Of a stretch of 64,000 nucleotides of DNA, positions 4,256 through 62,973 are shown one piece after another. The DNA lies in the NCBI GenBank assembly GCA_963667175.2, contig CAXXXF010000016.1, forward strand, positions 224,001-288,000, in the 5' to 3' direction. The notes under the pieces are model-generated. The model ran no database searches and was not told the DNA's origin. It worked only from the letters and a program-made list of their open reading frames with translations. The DNA comes from Candidatus Latescibacterota bacterium (GTDB lineage: Bacteria > Latescibacterota > UBA2968 > GCA-2709665). The translations under genes and the position numbers were made by a program. The number at the start of each line of letters is the position of its first letter. Within the stretch, counting starts at the first letter, position 1.

Positions 4256-4579
4256 GAGTCCGTTGAAAAAGTCGCTCTGCAGGCGAGGCATGGTGTCCCG
4301 TCCCGGAAATATGTCACCATTCATCCGCCGATTCATCCCGTCTGGCGGCGTTGCCTTCGCTCGGTGACCTTGCGCAGGTCGCCTCGCTCAAGCGCCTTGC
4401 CAGCCAGGCGACTCGACGGTCGAATTTCAGCGATCTATTTCCGGGACAGAACACTTGTCATTGTGGCCGATGACAAGGCGCGCGACCAACGCGAATCCCT
4501 GGATTCGGGGAGGGAGCGCAACGACGTAATTCGGTCACAAGAGCCGGTCGCAGCCCGGATGGACTTTACCAACGGGCTG
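4256..4579. mobile_element. MITE-like element, copy A (outer), carrying a nested element
   Basis: Ends GAGTCCGTTGAAAAA...TTTACCAACGGGCTG form imperfect terminal inverted repeats; the body aligns with the reverse complement of 28778-28984; non-coding. Confidence 0.8.
4293..4454. mobile_element. nested MITE-like element inside copy A
   Basis: Terminal inverted repeats GTGTCCCGTCCCGGAAAT / ATTTCCGGGACAGAACAC (16/18 match); the segment is absent at the equivalent position of copy B; internal hairpin. Confidence 0.75.
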
Positions 4580-4590
4580 CGAACGCGCCA

Positions 4591-5598
4591 TCACAGAGAA
4601 TTGACCTCCGCCCTTCTCATGAAAGCGCCAAAATCAACAACGCACCCTTCATCCGACGCCGCGCCGAGTCCCTCCACCAGGCCCACGGTCGGCAGATTCC
4701 GGTGTCCACCGAAATCCGGCTCGGCGCCTTCGGACACGTACTGGTGGAACCCGTCCAGCAGGACCTCTTCCGGCGGCGGGGCCTGGTCCAGAGGAATGAC
4801 TTCGTCTTCGTCCGACCCCGGGGCGCGCAGGAGCAATCCGCTGTCCGTCAGTTCGAGTGCGCCGCCGTCCAATTCCAACCTCAGGGCCGATCCTCCCTTG
4901 TGCGCCGCAAACGTACAGAGGTAACCGCATGTGGCCCCGCCCTCGAATTCGACCCACGCGTGGACGCCTGCGCCGCCCTTATATGGACTCCACGGCGGAT
5001 TGAAGCTGTGCCCCCACATACGTACGGGATCCGCGTCGAACAGGAAACGGAGGGTGTCGAGATCGTGAATGCCTCGCTCCCAGAGGTACGCGTGTTCATC
5101 TTCACCCGAATGGTGAACGCGGGGTCTCCAGCTGTACTTGGTCATCAGGCCGAACACCGGACGTCCGTATTTACCCTCCTTTACAAGACGGTTGATCGTG
5201 ACGTGTGCAGCCGCGAATCTCGCATTCTGGCAGACGGCCACCCGAACGCCCACGTCGTCGGCTTCCCGGACCACCCGGCACGCGTCAACCAGGCTTTTCG
5301 TGAACGGCTTTTCGACGAGAACGTGTTTTCCCGCCCGGACCGCCTGCAGGCACTGTTCGGCGTGCAGCTGCGGAGGGGTAATAACAACCACGGCGTCGGC
5401 TTCGACGCTTTCCATCGCTTCTTCCAGAGACCGGTAACACGCGGCATCCGGCAACCCCGATTCCTCGCGGGCCGACCTCAGATTGTCTTCGTTCACGTCG
5501 ACGAGCGCCACGCTTTCGTAATCGGTTCGTTCCATCACGCGACGAACCGGCCATCTCCCCCTGCCCCCGACACCCAGGTGAATAAGACGTATTGCCAT
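4591..5598 (-). CDS. Gfo/Idh/MocA family oxidoreductase
   Basis: Rossmann GVGGRG, ITPPQLH, GKHVLVEKP, GIHDLD. Confidence 0.92.
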   Translation of the reverse strand: MAIRLIHLGVGGRGRWPVRRVMERTDYESVALVDVNEDNLRSAREESGLPDAACYRSLEEAMESVEADAVVVITPPQLHAEQCLQAVRAGKHVLVEKPFTKSLVDACRVVREADDVGVRVAVCQNARFAAAHVTINRLVKEGKYGRPVFGLMTKYSWRPRVHHSGEDEHAYLWERGIHDLDTLRFLFDADPVRMWGHSFNPPWSPYKGGAGVHAWVEFEGGATCGYLCTFAAHKGGSALRLELDGGALELTDSGLLLRAPGSDEDEVIPLDQAPPPEEVLLDGFHQYVSEGAEPDFGGHRNLPTVGLVEGLGAASDEGCVVDFGAFMRRAEVNSL

Positions 5599-5894: not shown

Positions 5895-7382
5895 ATGCTG
5901 GAAACCGTCGATCTTACACGTAGGCTGAAAAAATCCAGGTATAAGGAACTCATTCCGGCTCTCGAACTGAAACTGGGCGATCTTCAGCGAAACGCCAGAG
6001 AGTGGAAGATCCCGATCGTGATCGTCTTCGAGGGCCTGGAGGCATCGGGCAAGGGAACCCAAACGAACAAGCTTCTGCTTGCGCTCGACCCCCGGGGCTT
6101 CAGCGTGTACCCGACCCATCCGGCCAACGAGGAAGAACGCAGAAAGCCCTTCCTCTGGCGTTTCTGGACGAAGATACCGGAGGGAGGGAGAATCGCGATT
6201 TTCGACCGGTCCTGGTACGGACGCTTTATGGTGGAGCGAATGGACAAGACCATCACCGAACGGGACTGGATGCGGGCCTACGGCGAAATCAGATCTTTCG
6301 AGAAACAGCTCGTCGACGCGGGCGCTGTCATCGTCAAAATCTTCCTGCACATTTCCCAGGCCGAACAAAGGAAACGGTTCATGAAGCTTCAGAGCAGTCC
6401 CTCGACCGCCTGGCGAATCACGGACTATGACTGGCAGAAGCACGAGAACTACCCCGAATGCCTGTCGGTGGCCTCGGAAATGCTGAAAAAAACCCATTCG
6501 GAGTTTGCGCCCTGGACCGCGGTGGCGGCTGAGGAGTGGCGATCGGCGAATATCAAGATCTTCAAAACCGTGATTAACGCCGTTGACGGCAGAATCCGTC
6601 AACTGGAAAATGGCGACCCCGCCACGCGACCAAAGCCTCAGAAACTTGAAAAAACTCCGTCGGGCTTGCTGGACAAGGTGGATCTCTCGAAATCCATGAA
6701 AAAGTCCGACTACCGAAAAGCCCTGAAAAAGTACCAGGTCCGCATCAAGAACCTGGAACACGAGGTCCATCGCCGCCGCATCCCGGTTGTGCTCGTCTAC
6801 GAAGGTTGGGACGCGGCGGGTAAAGGCGGAAACATCAAACGCCTCGTGCAGAATATGGACCCCAGAGGATATGAAGTCATTCCCGTTTCGGCGCCCAATG
6901 ACACCGAGATGGAACACCACTATCTCTGGCGATTCTGGAACCGCATGCCCAAGACCGGGCACATCACCATCTTTGACCGCTCCTGGTACGGAAGGGTCCT
7001 GGTTGAACGAATCGAGGGATTCTGTTCGGAATCGGAGTGGAAACGCGCCTACAGGGAAATCAACGAAATGGAAGAACACCTGACGAACTTTGGCGCCGTT
7101 ATCCTCAAATTCTGGATGCACGTGGACAAAGACGAACAGCTCAACCGGTTCACGGATCGAAAAAAGCATCCCCACAAGCGGTGGAAGCTGGGTGACGAGG
7201 ACTGGAGAAACCGGGAGAAGTGGGATGAATACGAGGAAGCGGTGGAGGAAATGATCCATCGCACGAGCACACCCAACGCTCCCTGGGTGATTGTCGAATC
7301 CAACTCGAAGTATTACGCCAGAATCAAGGCGTTGAAAACCGTTACCCGAAAACTGGAGTCGCGCCTCGGCATCCGGCATTGA
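5895..7382 (+). CDS. pap: polyphosphate:AMP phosphotransferase (two-domain PPK2)
   Basis: Two PPK2 domains (FEGLEASGKG...FDRSWY; YEGWDAAGKGG...FDRSWYGRVLVER); start moved to ATG 5895 after GGAGGAAGGA. Confidence 0.93.
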   Translation: MLETVDLTRRLKKSRYKELIPALELKLGDLQRNAREWKIPIVIVFEGLEASGKGTQTNKLLLALDPRGFSVYPTHPANEEERRKPFLWRFWTKIPEGGRIAIFDRSWYGRFMVERMDKTITERDWMRAYGEIRSFEKQLVDAGAVIVKIFLHISQAEQRKRFMKLQSSPSTAWRITDYDWQKHENYPECLSVASEMLKKTHSEFAPWTAVAAEEWRSANIKIFKTVINAVDGRIRQLENGDPATRPKPQKLEKTPSGLLDKVDLSKSMKKSDYRKALKKYQVRIKNLEHEVHRRRIPVVLVYEGWDAAGKGGNIKRLVQNMDPRGYEVIPVSAPNDTEMEHHYLWRFWNRMPKTGHITIFDRSWYGRVLVERIEGFCSESEWKRAYREINEMEEHLTNFGAVILKFWMHVDKDEQLNRFTDRKKHPHKRWKLGDEDWRNREKWDEYEEAVEEMIHRTSTPNAPWVIVESNSKYYARIKALKTVTRKLESRLGIRH

Positions 7383-8755: not shown

Positions 8756-10063
8756 TCAGCTGACAAAGGCGTCGTATATGGCTCGCACGGCCCGCTTGTA
8801 GTCGCCCTCTTCCACGCCGACGATGATGTTGATTTCAGACGCGCCCTGGTCGATCACACGGACGTTGACACTTGCGTTTGCAAGCGCGCTGAACAAACGG
8901 GCAGCAATACCGATGCGGTGCGACATGCCTTCACCAACGGTTGCGATGAGCGCCAATCCCGGCAACAGTTCCACTCGGTCGGGCTGCAGGATCCGTCGAA
9001 TGTCGTCGACGAGTCTTTCGCCTTTTTCGCCCAGTTGATCATCACGCATGATGACCGACATCGTATCGATGCCGGACGGCGTGTGCTCGTAACTGATGTC
9101 GTGCGACGCCACCACCTCCAGCACCTGCCGGCCAAAGCCTTTCTGCTGGTTCATCATTGCCTTTTCGATAAACAACATCGTAAATGCCGGCTGTCCGGCG
9201 ACACCGGCGATGAGTTCGTCGGTCAGTTCCCTGCGAGCGAGTATGCGAGTCCCCGGATCCTGAGGTCTGTTCGTATTGCGAATGTGGACGGGAATCCCGG
9301 CCGAGCGTACAGGAAACATGGCCTCGTCGTGGAAGACCGACGCCCCCATATACGCCAGTTCCCTGACCTCGCGGTACGTGATTTCACGTACCGGTCGCGC
9401 ATTCGTTACCAGGCCGGGGTCGGCCATCAGCAACCCGGACACGTCGGTCCAGTTCTCGTAGACCTCGGCGTCGACGGCCCGCGCCACGATTGCGCCGGTG
9501 ATATCGGAACCACCCCGGGAGAACGTCTTTACCGCACCGCCCGGATCGATGCCGTAGAACCCGGGCACGACGAATATCCCGTCGCTGTCGACCCGCTCCG
9601 CGAGATGGCTGTAGCTGGCGGGGTCCAGTTCACCTCCTGGACGAAAACGGATGGCTTCCGCGGCGTCAATGAAGGTTGCGTCCAGATAATCGGCCATGAC
9701 CCGACCGCAAAGATACTCGCCCCTCGAAGCGACAAAATCCCGGGATGCTCCTTGCTCGATATCCGTTCCCAAACCGTCGAGCAGCCGGCCCATATCGAGC
9801 CGGACTCCCAGTTTTGCCGCCAGTTCTTCATATCGGGAGCGCACCATTGCATAGGGCTCGGAAAAATCGAGATTCCGTCTGGCCAGTTCGTGGCACAGGT
9901 AGAGCGCGTCGGTGATCTTTGTATCCGTGTCGTCACGCTTGCCCGGCGCTGACGGGACAATAAGGCGCCGGCGCGAATCGGAATTGATGATGTGCTTAAC
10001 CTGTGCGACCTGCCGGTCATCGGCCAGGGAACTCCCGCCGAATTTACACACGACTGTTCCCAT
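8756..10063 (-). CDS. lysC: aspartate kinase
   Basis: KFGGSS, PSAPGKR, SRGE, TFSRGGSDITG, YENWTDVSG, two ACT domains; start ATG 10063 after GGAGGTGG. Confidence 0.92.
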   Translation of the reverse strand: MGTVVCKFGGSSLADDRQVAQVKHIINSDSRRRLIVPSAPGKRDDTDTKITDALYLCHELARRNLDFSEPYAMVRSRYEELAAKLGVRLDMGRLLDGLGTDIEQGASRDFVASRGEYLCGRVMADYLDATFIDAAEAIRFRPGGELDPASYSHLAERVDSDGIFVVPGFYGIDPGGAVKTFSRGGSDITGAIVARAVDAEVYENWTDVSGLLMADPGLVTNARPVREITYREVRELAYMGASVFHDEAMFPVRSAGIPVHIRNTNRPQDPGTRILARRELTDELIAGVAGQPAFTMLFIEKAMMNQQKGFGRQVLEVVASHDISYEHTPSGIDTMSVIMRDDQLGEKGERLVDDIRRILQPDRVELLPGLALIATVGEGMSHRIGIAARLFSALANASVNVRVIDQGASEINIIVGVEEGDYKRAVRAIYDAFVS

Positions 10064-27977: not shown

Positions 27978-28544
27978 CTACTCCAATTTTTCCGCCGCCT
28001 TGATGGGGAACTCCTCTTCGAATCTCTTCCTGTGGTTCTCTTCCCACCCGTCGATTGATTCCCGAAGCGCCGCGACCATCTGGGGCTCGACCTGCAGCAG
28101 GTCCTTCATCTTAATGGGAAACCTCTGGCCGTCGGGATAAAAACTCCCGTCTACCACCAACTCCTGGAGAAAGGGATAGGCGGACACCAATTCACCGGGC
28201 GAAGGAAGCAGCGGAGTGACGCGCGTATGAACCTTCAACCCGATATAGGTGAGGTGGCTGAATCCCATCCGGAATCGGACGTGAGCGCCAACCTTGTTCA
28301 CGCGCACCTTGTGGCCCGCGTACAGTTCGTTCAATCGCGCCGCCAGCCGCTCCCAATCCTGCTTGAATTCGTTCAGCGGCATCGCTTTGTCGCCGGCAAA
28401 CGCCGCTTCCCGGTCTTTTGCGAGTCTCTTGGCCATCGATAGGGACTGGTCGTCCAGCTTTTTGGTTTTGGCATCCGCCGAAGGCGCAAGGCATACCGAC
28501 AGACAGATGAAGCAACCCACCGAAATCGTGAGAACGAAACGCAC
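27978..28544 (-). CDS. hypothetical secreted protein
   Basis: Signal peptide ending ADA, RBS GGAGG, natural-looking composition. Confidence 0.65.
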   Translation of the reverse strand: MRFVLTISVGCFICLSVCLAPSADAKTKKLDDQSLSMAKRLAKDREAAFAGDKAMPLNEFKQDWERLAARLNELYAGHKVRVNKVGAHVRFRMGFSHLTYIGLKVHTRVTPLLPSPGELVSAYPFLQELVVDGSFYPDGQRFPIKMKDLLQVEPQMVAALRESIDGWEENHRKRFEEEFPIKAAEKLE

Positions 28545-28700
28545 TATGGCCTCCCCATTTTAGCGTACGATCGCGCGACACCCCTACCTGATAAAGGCGT
28601 CCCAAGACACCCGACGTCACATCCGGTGCGACACGTCGGGTTTTCGACAGACAAGAGGGTAAGGAATTCTGAACCATCGCGCAAGCGATTTCTCCGGCGC

Positions 28701-28738
28701 AGAAGAAAACCCGCGCACCGTGATTCCGGGTGCGCGGG
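28701..28738 (-). terminator. intrinsic terminator of the feo operon
   Basis: Minus strand CCCGCGCACC...GGTGCGCGGG-TTTTCTTCT. Confidence 0.7.
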
Positions 28739-28807
28739 CGCCGATGGTTCCGGAACCGGGCTCTGTTCAGGCCATAGCAGCCCGTTGATAAAGTCCATCC
28801 GGGCTGC

Positions 28808-28833
28808 CTGCCTGTGCGTTCGCACGCAGACAG
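28808..28833. repeat. 26-bp palindromic micro-insertion with GC duplication
   Basis: GC[CTGCCTGTGCGTTCGCACGCAGACAG]GC; copy A has a single GC here. Confidence 0.8.
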
Positions 28834-28867
28834 GCGTCCGGCCCTTGTGACCGAAAAACGGCGTTGC

Positions 28868-28884
28868 CTGCCTGCAGCAGGCAG
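28868..28884. repeat. 17-bp palindromic micro-insertion with GC duplication
   Basis: GC[CTGCCTGCAGCAGGCAG]GC; copy A has a single GC here. Confidence 0.8.
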
Positions 28885-28973
28885 GCGCTCCCTCCCCGAA
28901 TCCAGGGATTCGCGTCGGTCGCGCGCCTTGTCTTCGGCCACAATGACTCGGCCTCGCCTGCGGAGCGATTTTT

Positions 28974-29150
28974 TCAACGGGCTGGCGGCGGCTGCTCGAC
29001 GTCGAGCAGGGATCCGTTTGAAGCGCCGCGTTGCCCGCCGCAGGAGGAACAGCCGCCTGATCCTGCCAGGAAAGGACTTACAAATTTCCACGTCGCCCAG
29101 AAAGCGCAGGCGATCGCAACACCCGCCGCCACCAACGACTGCCAGTCCAT
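28974..29150 (-). CDS. FeoB-associated Cys-rich small membrane protein
   Basis: 58 aa MDWQSLVAAGVAIACAFW...GGCSSCGG starting 5 bp after the feoB stop. Confidence 0.8.
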   Translation of the reverse strand: MDWQSLVAAGVAIACAFWATWKFVSPFLAGSGGCSSCGGQRGASNGSLLDVEQPPPAR

Positions 29151-29155
29151 ATTAT

Positions 29156-31387
29156 CTACCCCCATCCCAGGGCCATTGTGCCCTGATAGGCCGCAAACGC
29201 GCCGATATAGGCCAATATCGTCATATAGGCGAACGTCATCGTCGTCCATCCCCAGGACTGCGTCTCCCGGCGGATGACGGCCAGCGTCGACGCGCACTGC
29301 GCACAAAGCGCGAAAAACACCATCACAGACAGCGCGACTGGGATATTGAACACGCGGCGTCCATCCTCCCACGTCGCATTGCGAAGCGCGCTGCGCAGGT
29401 CTTCGGAGGATTCGTCCGCGTCGCCGCTCAAACTGTAGATGGTACCAAGCGTGGCGACAATGACCTCCCGCGCAGGGAAGGAAGCGAGCGTGGCCATCCC
29501 GATGCGCCAATCCCAGCCCAGGGGCCTGACCGCAGGTTCTATCCAGTGGCCGGCCCGGCCCAGATAACTCTCATTCAGGAGGTCAGCGGCCATGCGTGCG
29601 TCCAGGTCCGAGAGTGTTTGCTGCAGCCGCTCACCCGATAGCGTTGCCGTTGCCGTCTGCCGGCGGCGTTCGTACTCTGCAACCGTATCCGCCGATCTGG
29701 GGAAATATGCCAGCGCCCACATCACAATGGTCGCAGCCAGAATGATACTGCCCGCCCGCACCAGGAACGCTCTCGAACTGTGATAGACCCGGAGGCCTAC
29801 CGTCCGTTTGTCCGGCACTTTGTAAGAAGGGAATTCCAAAATAAAAGGCGGCGTCTCGCCTCTCAACAACGTCTTCTTCAGAATCCAGGCGACGGGTACT
29901 GCCGCTACCACACCCACGCAATACATCGCAAAGAGGGTCAACCCCTGCAGACCGACCCATTCTCCCATGATCGCCTTCGCCGGGATAAATGCGCCGATGA
30001 GGATGGTGTAAACCGGTAGCCGGGCCGAACAACTCATCAGCGGCGCCACCAGGATGGTTAGCAGACGGTTCCGACGATCTTCGATGGACCGGGTTGCCAT
30101 AATGCCAGGTACAGCACACGCAAAACTGGACAACATCGGAATGAAGGACTGACCCGAGAGCCCGCACTTTGTCAGGAGTCTGTCCATTAACAGGGCCGCG
30201 CGGGCCATATAGCCGCAATCTTCCAGAATGGCAATGAAGAAAAACAGAATGGCGATCTGCGGCAGAAAAATGACGACACCGCCCACGCCCGCGATGACGC
30301 CGTCCTGAATAAGGCTCTTCAGCGCCCCTTCCGGAAACCACGCGCCGACCCATCCGGACAACCAGGCAAACAGACCGTCAACCGAGTCCATCAACGGACC
30401 GGACCAGGCGTAGATGGCCTGAAATACGACGCCCATGACGGCGACGAACAGGAGCGTCCCCAACAGCCTGTGAGTCAGCACGCGGTCGATGCGGTCCGAG
30501 GGCGTCCTTTGAAGGTACCGGGGTTTCGATTCGCTTTGAGCAAGCACGCGCTTGATCCAGTTATAGCGAACCTCCGACTCCAGGGCGGATAACCCTGAAT
30601 CGGTCGAAAACCGGCCCCGGGCTTCAGCGAGCTTTCCCCGGACCCCGTCACCGTGCGCTTCGATCAGCCGGCGCTCCGCGTAACCGCCTTCGTCGACGAT
30701 CGCCCGGAACGCCTCCGCGCGACAGGAGGACACACTCTGTCCATTGTATGATTGCAGGACCTCCGCGAGACTGTCGACCGCCGCGGGGAATCCCTCCGGA
30801 AACCCCGCGAGAAGCGGTGAAGCCCCGGTACGTCCGTTGTACAGCGCCTGTACCAGTTCGCGGCGCAGGTCGCCCAGCCCCCGGCTGCGGTTTGCGCAAA
30901 CCCCGACCACTGGTACTCCCAGGCGCCGCGAGAGTCCGTCGACGTCTATTCGTATGCCCCGGGCATCCGCCACGTCCATCATATTCAGCGCGACAAGCGT
31001 GGGCAGGCCGAGTTCGAGCACCTGTGAGACCAGGTAAAGATTCCGATAGAGATTGGATGCGTCTACAATGGCCAGAACCGCGTCTACCTTACGTTCGCCG
31101 GGCAGGCGTCCGAGCAGTACGTCGGCGACGATCATCTCATCGGGGGCGTGAGCGGCCAGGCTGTAGGTCCCCGGCAGGTCGACGAGATCCACGGTTCTGT
31201 CATCGGACAGCCTGAGCCGCCCGACCTTACGCTCGACCGTTACGCCGGGATAGTTTCCCACATGTTGAAAAAGTCCGGTAAGACCGTTGAAAAGCGTGGT
31301 CTTACCGGTATTGGGATTGCCCACGAGCGCGATGGTATGGCGTTGATCGGTCCCGGTGTGCAGTCCGCCGGACAACTCCGTAGGCAT
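29156..31387 (-). CDS. feoB: ferrous iron transport protein B
   Basis: [55 protein letters not shown]. Confidence 0.97.
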   Translation of the reverse strand: MPTELSGGLHTGTDQRHTIALVGNPNTGKTTLFNGLTGLFQHVGNYPGVTVERKVGRLRLSDDRTVDLVDLPGTYSLAAHAPDEMIVADVLLGRLPGERKVDAVLAIVDASNLYRNLYLVSQVLELGLPTLVALNMMDVADARGIRIDVDGLSRRLGVPVVGVCANRSRGLGDLRRELVQALYNGRTGASPLLAGFPEGFPAAVDSLAEVLQSYNGQSVSSCRAEAFRAIVDEGGYAERRLIEAHGDGVRGKLAEARGRFSTDSGLSALESEVRYNWIKRVLAQSESKPRYLQRTPSDRIDRVLTHRLLGTLLFVAVMGVVFQAIYAWSGPLMDSVDGLFAWLSGWVGAWFPEGALKSLIQDGVIAGVGGVVIFLPQIAILFFFIAILEDCGYMARAALLMDRLLTKCGLSGQSFIPMLSSFACAVPGIMATRSIEDRRNRLLTILVAPLMSCSARLPVYTILIGAFIPAKAIMGEWVGLQGLTLFAMYCVGVVAAVPVAWILKKTLLRGETPPFILEFPSYKVPDKRTVGLRVYHSSRAFLVRAGSIILAATIVMWALAYFPRSADTVAEYERRRQTATATLSGERLQQTLSDLDARMAADLLNESYLGRAGHWIEPAVRPLGWDWRIGMATLASFPAREVIVATLGTIYSLSGDADESSEDLRSALRNATWEDGRRVFNIPVALSVMVFFALCAQCASTLAVIRRETQSWGWTTMTFAYMTILAYIGAFAAYQGTMALGWG

Positions 31388-32359: not shown

Positions 32360-32398
32360 GAGAAATTTAGCGGGATTCCAGGGTTGGTGGCGACACGC

Positions 32399-41042: not shown

Positions 41043-41327
41043 GTCGAGTCGTGATCGGCAAGCTGCTGAGATCCCCCGTCCTCAACCGAAGGCGGGTACC
41101 CACAAGGGACACCCCTACACGAAAGGTAGCCGTAATTATAGAAGTGCGTCCGTGACTCGAATCCCCTCCGGATAACAAAGCGGACGGTTCACGAACCGCC
41201 CCAACACATATAGGGCCGGAGCGAACGAATCGCGAAGGCGCAATGCGAGCGGCCGAAGGACGTAAGGGAGGATAATCGAGTCTCACGAACGGCGTGTAGG
41301 AGCGACCGGCCGGGGCGCCCCTACAAT
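41043..41327 (+). repeat. REP-containing direct repeat, copy 1 (BIME-like)
   Basis: Strong match to 42757-42919 over 41043-41206, weaker match to the end; three REP hairpins ending CCCCTAC or a close variant. Confidence 0.8.
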
Positions 41328-42756: not shown

Positions 42757-43043
42757 GTCGAGTCGTGATCGACAGGCGGCTGGTACCCCCGTCCGCGACA
42801 GAAGGCGGGCGCCCACAAGGGATGACCCTACACGAAAGGTAGCCGGAATTGTAGAAGTGCGTCCGTGACTCGAATCCCCTCCCGAAAACAAAGCCGGCGG
42901 TTCACGAACCGCCCCTACAAAGCAGGGGGGAGTGACAGAAGCGCGAAGGTACTACGTCCTCGTGACTCTCCGGGGGCGGCGGACAGATCGGGTTCTGGAC
43001 AGCGGCGACGTGTAGGGGCCTGCTGCAGGCAGGCCCCTACAAT
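42757..43043 (+). repeat. REP-containing direct repeat, copy 2
   Basis: Same order of blocks as copy 1; ends GTAGGGGCCTGCTGCAGGCAGGCCCCTACAAT. Confidence 0.8.
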
Positions 43044-62759: not shown

Positions 62760-62768
62760 TCCTCCGCT

Positions 62769-62952
62769 GCAAGGGTAGAGGCGCGGGTTTGCATCAGTAA
62801 CCGGCGGTGGACGGCGGACCCACAGCTGCCGGACGAAAGGGTGAACCTGCCGAAGCCCGGAACTCCCTCCGCCGGGATTGACGGGCTGGGCCGCTGGATA
62901 AAATCCAGCTGGACTGTCACGGGAAACAAGGCCCCGTGGAGCGCTCTCTTGC
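62769..62952 (+). ncRNA. lysine riboswitch (L-box)
   Basis: Ordered signature blocks GGTAGAGGCGC, AGTA, GAAAGG, GCCGAA, TGGG, GACTGTC, GGAGCGCT; P1 GCAAGGG/CTCTTGC; upstream of asd. Confidence 0.92.
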
Positions 62953-62973
62953 GATGTCGCGCATTCCGGTCGT

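Follow-up and report, generated by a model that had tools for sequence, protein, structure and literature searches.

A dispersed family of 19-37-nt GC-rich hairpin units found precisely inserted in MITEs and other hosts of Latescibacterota genomes

The window analysed here—the whole stretch of DNA, 64 kb in length—contains two copies of a short repeat, MITE-1; copy B has the stop of feoB (29156-31387, minus strand) on one side and the start of an ORF of 188 residues (27978-28544, minus strand) on the other, and copy A adjoins a copy of another element, MITE-2 (Table 1). Copy B carries two palindromes missing from copy A, as the original prediction had it, which was confirmed by alignment, by a repeat finder and by hairpin folding. 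Aligning the reverse complement of 4380-4680 with 28680-29030 leaves two blocks present in copy B only, one of 28 nt at 28806-28833, reading GCCTGCCTGTGCGTTCGCACGCAGACAG (one GC included), and one of 19 nt at 28866-28884, reading GCCTGCCTGCAGCAGGCAG; their placement is ambiguous by GC. The repeat finder, working independently, resolves the match between the two copies into three arms (I2 97%, I3 85% and I1 97%), the gaps being exactly the two inserts, and DNA folding gives hairpins of -9.4 kcal/mol (z -2.49) and -10.2 kcal/mol (z -2.59). The pattern CTGCCTG-N(0-30)-CAGRCAG has four overlapping matches in the window, all of them at these two inserts; the mean in 100 shuffles of the window is 0.05, with none reaching four. 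Both inserts have GC on either side, and a single GC is seen at the empty site 1 (between 4551 and 4550) and the empty site 2 (between 4519 and 4518) of copy A. The latter is thus the empty-site paralogue that it had been taken for, although not a clean full copy, being truncated at nt 124 and abutted by MITE-2. The claim that the inserts adjoin hairpin arms holds for site 1, located directly 3' of an 8-bp stem (GCAGCCCG/CGGGCTGC), but only loosely for site 2.

Table 1 Coordinates of the palindromic units and of their host elements in the window
Feature	Position	Strand	Description
MITE-1 copy B	28777..28984	+	161-nt element, enlarged by palindromes totalling 47 nt; terminal inverted repeats of 18 nt (CAGCCCGTTGAWAAAGTC)
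Palindromic unit 1	28807..28834	+	28 nt, a-type CCTGCCTG-TGCGTTCGCACG-CAGACAGG; MITE-1 site 1, between G28806 and C28835
Palindromic unit 2	28867..28885	.	19 nt, CCTGCCTG-CAG-CAGGCAGG; MITE-1 site 2, between G28866 and C28886
MITE-1 copy A	4457..4580	-	truncated after nt 124; sites 1, 2 and 3 all empty
MITE-2 copy abutting copy A	4293..4456	-	terminal repeats GTGTYCTGTCCC...

The only Rfam match in the window (RF00168, 79.2 bits) is a plus-strand lysine riboswitch at 62768-62954; the MITE gave none, and no tRNAs were found. A separate palindrome at 43010-43041, with a 13-bp stem (TGTAGGGGCCTGC-TGCAG-GCAGGCCCCTACA) and starting with GTAG, has a REP-like form and is not a member of the family described below; it is positioned within a stretch of lower GC content (38-44 kb, 52-54% GC) that also harbours 134-nt direct repeats at 41073 and 42786.

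Scanning species-representative genomes with the 21-base core of the MITE-1 repeat yielded 30 loci of 20 kb each (cited below as L001 and so on). Among them, 25 come from one complete chromosome, OZ241917.1, of a Candidatus Latescibacterota MAG (5.87 Mb; the reference genome), one each from two further Latescibacterota assemblies, OZ244744.1 and JAGWBX010000029.1, and the remaining three are chance matches in unrelated phyla. It should be pointed out here that all the unit counts given below are taken from the window and these MITE-1-selected loci, which inflates the proportion of units located in MITE-1. Over ~20 kb the window shows synteny with L001 of OZ241917.1 (88-94% identity), and so belongs to a related species; in L001 the whole of copy B (28777-28984) is missing from the orthologous site (L001 about 6531-6534); a pair of MITE-1 and MITE-2 present in L001 (9920-10258) is, in turn, missing from the window at 32370/32381. 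These two absences imply that the MITEs moved after the two lineages split, and both MITE-1 and MITE-2 appear to have done so recently.

Concerning MITE-2, its terminal inverted repeats resemble those of an IS630-type element in L023 (8745-9905), which is flanked by TA and encodes a transposase of 362 residues with DDE_3 and HTH domains (ORF 8759-9847, minus strand); since the terminal repeats are closely alike, this element is probably the autonomous parent of MITE-2. It immediately follows a MITE-1 copy, the position that MITE-2 takes in copy A of the window and in L001, so that the right end of MITE-1 seems to be favoured as a target. The loci of the reference genome also include two type II restriction-modification pairs, one consisting of a BamHI-like endonuclease and an N6/N4 methylase (L017:4688-6309), the other of an MjaI-like endonuclease and a methylase (L022:11251-13151). 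A plasmid collection gave no match either to MITE copy B or to a nested cluster of palindromes from L017, and for feoB it contained distant matches only.

In an alignment of 31 copies and fragments of MITE-1—29 of them from the loci, where overlaps entered the count a single time, and two from the window—19 have no palindrome, the other 12 being filled at three different sites with units that have the ends CCTGYCTG...CAGRCAGG in common. Site 1 (CCGGGCT G/C GTCC, the slash marking the junction) is filled in 4 of the 30 copies covering it (window B, L013, L026b and L005), site 2 (GCGTT G/C GCTCC) in 8 of 29, and site 3 (GTCGGTC G/C GCGCC), which is empty in the window, in 2 of 30 (L019 and L020). 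Site 2 is occupied by the 19-nt unit in window B and by a different unit of 33 nt in seven copies of the reference genome (L002, L004, L005, L006, L011/L024, L012 and L018). The MITE-1 copy of L012 carries a further unit with a mutated end, missed by the pattern search. The filled/empty pairs that had been looked for in support of insertion are thus many, and they are orthologous as well as paralogous: a 27-nt site-1 unit of L013 is missing in L026 from the same MITE-1 copy with the same flanks, these loci being syntenic (95% identity over 1.9 kb around the element, 80-84% further out) and the MITE bodies differing at three positions.

It could be argued that the palindromes are ancestral to the MITE and that the empty copies lost them by hairpin-promoted deletion between GC repeats, without any mobility. 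Internal hairpin deletions do seem to occur, the site-1 unit of L005 having only 21 nt and the 19-nt unit corresponding to a 33-nt type minus its hairpin; any single filled/empty pair is, moreover, formally reversible, and precise loss is conceivable for each of them taken singly. On this account most MITE copies should carry both palindromes, which is false, given the prevalence of copies empty at all sites and the fact that only L005 among the 29 other copies is, besides window B, filled at both sites 1 and 2. The common ends recur, furthermore, at three MITE-1 sites, in MITE-2, in a group II intron, in a gene and within one another, and their presence at unrelated sites requires copying to new sites. 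Deletion is therefore refuted as the origin of the family, and we regard this alternative as very improbable.

How often the units entered MITE-1 independently is uncertain, because having the site-2 unit in common does not go with a closer relationship: the MITE bodies of the copies concerned diverge by 6.5% among themselves versus 6.35% from empty copies (a third figure being 6.2%). The 33-nt units at site 2 differ from one another by 1-2 bases, and these copies may descend from a single filled master that the MITE multiplied, or the site may be a hot spot that was hit repeatedly; more generally, several filled MITE-1 copies probably spread together with the MITE. L019 and L020 have identical 30-nt units in MITE bodies that are 8% divergent, which is suggestive only (chance about 0.08, by hand arithmetic).

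The units are not confined to MITE-1. A strict pattern search of the window and the loci, followed by inspection, gave 27 units, of which 15 are located in MITE-1, four in MITE-2, two in an intron, one in a gene and five elsewhere; the presence of the motif elsewhere in the genome, on which the original prediction had set weight, is thus borne out by 12 of the 27. From these 12 units outside MITE-1 in ~0.56 Mb, a copy number of roughly 100 or more may be extrapolated for each genome. A relaxed pattern allowing one mismatch per end gave 50 matches versus 8-20 in 20 block shuffles and, being noisy, was set aside in favour of the strict one. In MITE-2 the units occupy the site AATCG/GC/GGAAG, twice in L017, and the MITE-2 copy of the window is empty there, reading ...GGGATGAATCG/GC/GGATGAATGG.... 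The intron is an ORF-less group II intron of ~790 nt, found in at least two copies at 87% identity (L025:5791-6584 and L003:1192-1979), the repeat matching RF02003 at 97.8 bits and RF00029 at 45.8 bits in Rfam. Its units lie at two different sites, so that each copy serves as the empty site of the other: L003 is filled where L025 reads ...GGTCCC GC CGGGG..., and L025 is filled where L003 reads ...GCAAC AC GGGAAG.... A short repeat following the group II intron is common to L002, L004, L017 and L020. Further units were found between convergent genes at L012:3584, and at L003:17608, L018:15720 and L020:16240. Identical 33-mers occur at unrelated sites, namely in the gene, in MITE-2 and nested in an a-type unit.

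The unit in the gene (L011:14861-14893, 33 nt) lies in frame and adds 11 residues to an ORF of 662 residues (L011:14697-16685), which has a weak match to Glyco_hydro_20b (E 9.5e-5, below the curated cut-off). The protein belongs to a conserved, glycosidase-like family of 650-660 residues, with 61 relatives at E<=1e-10. The first 140 residues were aligned for 17 sequences—the top 13 and four from further down the list—and the insert is missing from all 15 other sequences that cover the site, P0010 starting after it. An artefact was rejected for this insert, as the protein bearing it represents a cluster of 21 member sequences, and a sequencing or assembly artefact was likewise rejected for the units in general, which are found at matching positions in four independent assemblies.

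Nested units were resolved by removing the innermost CCTG...CAGG unit and repeating the step, and this peeling restored a canonical family member every time. Two units lie inside the 33-nt site-2 unit of L004, the peeled outer unit being identical to that of L002; an a-type unit lies inside a 33-nt unit in L018; and in L017 the nesting is three deep, with a 33-nt unit in a reverse-oriented a-type unit that is itself in another 33-nt unit. Every nested junction is again G/C. Such nests are hard to explain without repeated precise insertion. Counting conservatively from the alignments—a reading of them rather than a computed statistic—at least 15 distinct insertion events may be distinguished: at least one at site 1, two at site 2 (two different units), one at site 3, two in the nests of L004, one in MITE-2 with two more nested in it, two in the intron, one in the gene, two in L018 (outer and nested) and one at L012:3584.

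An unbiased scan, in which all-against-all BLAST hits were chained in search of indels of 10-150 nt between paralogous repeats, gave 31 places (some seen twice in overlapping loci). Palindromic units or nests account for 18 of these, one 35-nt deletion in the L012 copy for six, a different MITE-2 insert of 43-71 nt for five, and alignment offsets for two; the units are thus the main source of small indels in the repeats of this genome. A second short dispersed motif, ...CCCTTCGACAAGCTCAGGGA..., was observed at L017:12704-12749, L016:7097-7142 and ~8 other loci (e.g. L002:17968, L022:10529, L023:12602 and L025:9832), and may represent another small insertion family; in two places it lies in an insert of 43-44 nt that distinguishes the MITE-2 copies there from others.

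Independently selected functional motifs, such as terminators or a protein-binding site, that arose in place would offer another account of the palindromes. Roles of this kind are known for REP elements (PMC3733652), and some units do lie between convergent genes as terminators would, for instance that at L012:3584. The boundaries of the units are, however, clean indels against paralogues and orthologues otherwise identical at 90-98%, and neither the nests nor the in-frame coding insertion fit an origin in place, which we find scarcely credible.

With regard to their anatomy, the two inserts of the window are members of a dispersed family of GC-rich hairpins of 19-37 nt, present in at least four related Latescibacterota genomes. 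In ~0.66 Mb the 27 units measure 19-37 nt, with one chimera of 53 nt, the commonest length being 33 nt (13 of 27). Their ends, CCTGYCTG...CAGRCAGG, are conserved; the interior is variable, usually a bulged stem-loop, and falls into the a-type, two or three 33-nt types and the 19-nt minimal unit of the window. The a-type has the form TGCG-loop-CGCACG with the right end always CAGACAGG, and every member of it has a C.A mismatch and a 2-nt bulge; in the fold of lowest energy, four bases at the 5' end stay unpaired (CCTG or GCCT). The 33-nt types keep bulges of 2-3 nt, and folding energies across the units, computed for DNA hairpins, range from -4.6 to -16 kcal/mol. Unit 1 of the window is of the a-type, which recurs at that MITE-1 site in L013 and L026b; L019/L020 have it at another site, and L018 has it in a nest. 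Unit 2, the shortest family member seen, equals the 33-nt type CCTGCCTG-CAG-CGCAGGGCACTGCG-CAGGCAGG minus its inner 14-nt hairpin. No strand bias is detectable from the orientation of a-type units relative to the local GC skew (6 versus 5); along the chromosome the skew of the 25 loci of OZ241917.1 changes sign irregularly, giving no clean replichore map.

The units are inserted precisely, almost always between G (sometimes A) and C. Taking the unit as CCTGYCTG...CAGRCAGG (n=27), the preceding base is G in 22 cases, A in three, T in one and C in one, and the following base is C in 26 and T in one; the flanks beyond -1/+1 are not conserved. The three units preceded by A (L025:6114, L026:15385 and L020:16240) all read AC...GC, never AC...AC, and AC is established as the empty state for two of these, by the L003 intron copy and by the A variant of site 1, which occurs in six of the 19 MITE-1 copies without palindromes. 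Since AC...AC is what a staggered 2-bp cut would leave, the right-hand G belongs to the unit. The simplest rule would be that a unit starting with C and ending with G is placed into R/C, leaving R/C on the left and G/C on the right; an equivalent register may be a unit CTG...CAGGC inserted 3' of RC. The GC duplication suggested originally is thus seen as GC on both flanks of the two window inserts, but does not demonstrate a duplication by staggered cut: a unit starting with C and ending with G recreates G/C at both junctions whenever it enters G/C. A target-site duplication of fixed length, copying any target, is contradicted by the AC...GC cases, which, with the R/C rule, agree instead with insertion of the IS200/IS605 kind, by a short specific sequence and with no target duplication.

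The same junctions bear on a classical miniature transposon of the double-strand DDE type, whose terminal inverted repeats would be the 7-8-bp ends and whose staggered cut would duplicate a 2-bp GC. Such an element would account for GC on both sides in 22 of the 27 units with one GC at the empty sites, and MITEs mobilised by DDE enzymes do run in this genome, which has the DDE_3 transposase of the IS630-type element in L023. It is at odds with the three AC...GC units, two of them with AC as the known empty form, and 19 nt is too short to accommodate two ends for transposase binding; the terminal inverted repeats of the one DDE element found are, furthermore, unrelated, and its flanks are TA. 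We know of no DDE family that makes GC duplications, and consider this explanation improbable.

Based on the above results, the palindromic family is, or recently has been, mobile, since the deletion account fails and the units are precisely inserted in many hosts. The proposal that very small palindromes form a mobile family using a defined dinucleotide as its site is in this way supported by the empty copies, the other hosts and the filled/empty pairs. As for the mechanism, we tentatively favour, at somewhat less than even confidence in the explanation as a whole, a mobile hairpin family cut and joined as a single strand at R/C by an HUH/Y1 enzyme. The unit would move as a folded single strand; a nuclease-ligase of the HUH/Y1 type, encoded elsewhere in the genome, would cut at R/C on both sides of the hairpin, and the excised unit would be joined into R/C of single-stranded target DNA, after which transposition of the MITEs would spread the units passively. 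The model is drawn by analogy from the cutting by TnpA(REP)/RAYT and from IS200/IS605 insertion without duplication. TnpA(REP) cleaves single-stranded REP at C/T, 5' or 3' of the hairpin, a bulge in the stem of the E. coli REP is needed for its activity (PMC8266576), and IS200/IS605 transposition produces no target duplication (PMC8266576, PMC3116915). The conserved asymmetries of the units—the C.A mismatch and 2-nt bulge of the a-type and the bulges of the 33-nt types—may likewise tell the enzyme which strand to act on.

A search for such an enzyme by Pfam gave no Y1/HUH transposase (PF01797) among ~377 ORFs, a weak negative, since these cover ~0.56 Mb of the 5.87-Mb reference chromosome (~10%). 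The cut-offs were E<=1e-5 for 57 ORFs of the window, 1e-3 for 24, 1e-6 for 150 and 1e-8 for 145, with one more ORF scanned; from the loci other than L001 and the three unrelated ones, ORFs of 95-420 residues were taken. None of the 57 window ORFs matched a transposase family, as had been stated for the window from the beginning, and a regular expression for the HUH...Y motif, which is a weak test, gave no candidates in 2950 stop-to-stop ORFs. The only transposase among the ORFs scanned is the IS630-type DDE enzyme of L023 (8759-9847), with terminal inverted repeats that match MITE-2 and are unrelated to the palindromes, and with TA flanks.

This outcome would also be expected if the units spread by a route without a dedicated transposase, be it RNA/reverse-transcriptase copying of the kind proposed for the GC clusters of yeast mitochondria, template switching at hairpins or ligation of hairpin oligonucleotides at replication or repair nicks, or else by a wholly new enzyme class. 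The genome has group II introns, so that a reverse transcriptase is likely to be encoded somewhere, and the 42-nt clusters of yeast mitochondria are alike in size, in hairpin shape and in having flanking repeats of 2-3 nt (PMC4478555). The intron copies seen are, however, without ORFs, no reverse transcriptase gene is present among the ORFs scanned, and the ends and the R/C junction are very exact, even three deep, which fits cleavage at a specific sequence better than accidents of repair. This alternative is in our opinion rather unlikely, though by no means negligible. A bolder version may be put forward as a speculation that we ourselves doubt: that nothing smaller has yet been defined as a self-contained mobile DNA unit in a bacterial chromosome, a hairpin of 19 nt being the whole element, and that the mover of these units is not a GTAG-reading RAYT but a new G/C-specific branch of HUH enzymes or another hairpin-specific nuclease-ligase. 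If so, the enzyme might be re-targetable simply by the hairpin carried, and, with junctions so exact and nestable, this would be the first system of the REP, SDR or GC-cluster kind with a mover identifiable by co-occurrence of gene and element.

Hairpin units of 19-37 bases are among the smallest mobile DNA known, and it is still unsettled how very short palindromic repeats of this sort—REPs, the SDRs of cyanobacteria and mitochondrial GC clusters—spread; for SDRs and mitochondrial GC clusters no moving enzyme is known to us. The single hairpins described here come with unusually clean evidence of insertion, comprising empty sites in paralogues and orthologues, nests that are three units deep and a conserved gene with a unit in frame, and together with the simple R/C junction rule this makes the question testable. 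For annotation it matters that the units alter the lengths of MITEs, can add 11 residues to proteins and make strong intergenic hairpins.

Among the known systems, SDR4-6 of Nostoc and Anabaena, reportedly described by Elhai et al. in 2008, are said to be palindrome-ended repeats of 21-27 nt inserted into conserved sequences, including MITEs and each other, and are likewise said to have no known enzyme. They differ from the present units in phylum and in sequence. Yeast mitochondrial GC clusters (e.g. GC42) and related organellar hairpins are hairpins of ~40 nt with sporadic presence and absence, direct repeats of 2-3 nt at their flanks (AG, ACT), merged units and an unresolved mechanism (PMC4478555); they occur in organelles at AT-rich targets, whereas the palindromic units occupy G/C junctions in bacterial chromosomes. 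IS200/IS605 elements and PATEs share with the units the lack of target duplication, the use of a short specific sequence and the recognition of a hairpin folded from one strand (PMC8266576, and PMC3116915 on IS608). They have, however, two different subterminal hairpins and targets of 4-5 nt read by guides, while here one hairpin is the whole element.

The closest comparison is with the REP/RAYT systems of Proteobacteria, including REPINs and BIMEs, which consist of GC-rich imperfect palindromes of 20-40 nt in many copies, sometimes in genes (PMC8266576, PMC3733652, PMC3184786). In E. coli the enzyme cuts a dinucleotide (C/T) that flanks a folded single strand, and an irregularity in the stem is needed (PMC8266576). 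The palindromic units have the size and the dispersal of REPs, taken as GC-rich imperfect palindromes of ~20-65 nt in many dispersed copies, and the in-frame unit of L011 recalls both intragenic REPs and the protein-coding palindromes of Rickettsia. The differences are several. REP superfamilies are defined by an unpaired GTAG or CGTC tag (PMC3733652), which the units lack; REPs stand in inverted pairs, as REPINs or BIMEs, whereas the units occur singly or in nests, and inverted pairs at regular spacing were not seen; and the REP cut is at C/T, against the G/C junction here. REP systems have a Y1 RAYT gene (PF01797) in the genome, as a rule with REPs of its own on its flanks, and none was found here among the ~377 ORFs scanned, equal to ~10% of the reference genome. 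Filled and empty sites of single units are, moreover, abundant here, whereas the mobile unit of REPs is thought to be the two-REP REPIN (PMC3116915). The units are therefore not filed as REPs, because they have no GTAG or CGTC tag and are not paired. The searched portions of the literature gave no description of this unit family or of repeats in Latescibacterota. The kind itself is already known from REPs, cyanobacterial SDRs and organellar GC clusters; what is notable in the present family is the size of its units, the lack of a REP tag, the G/C rule and the clean nested and coding insertions.
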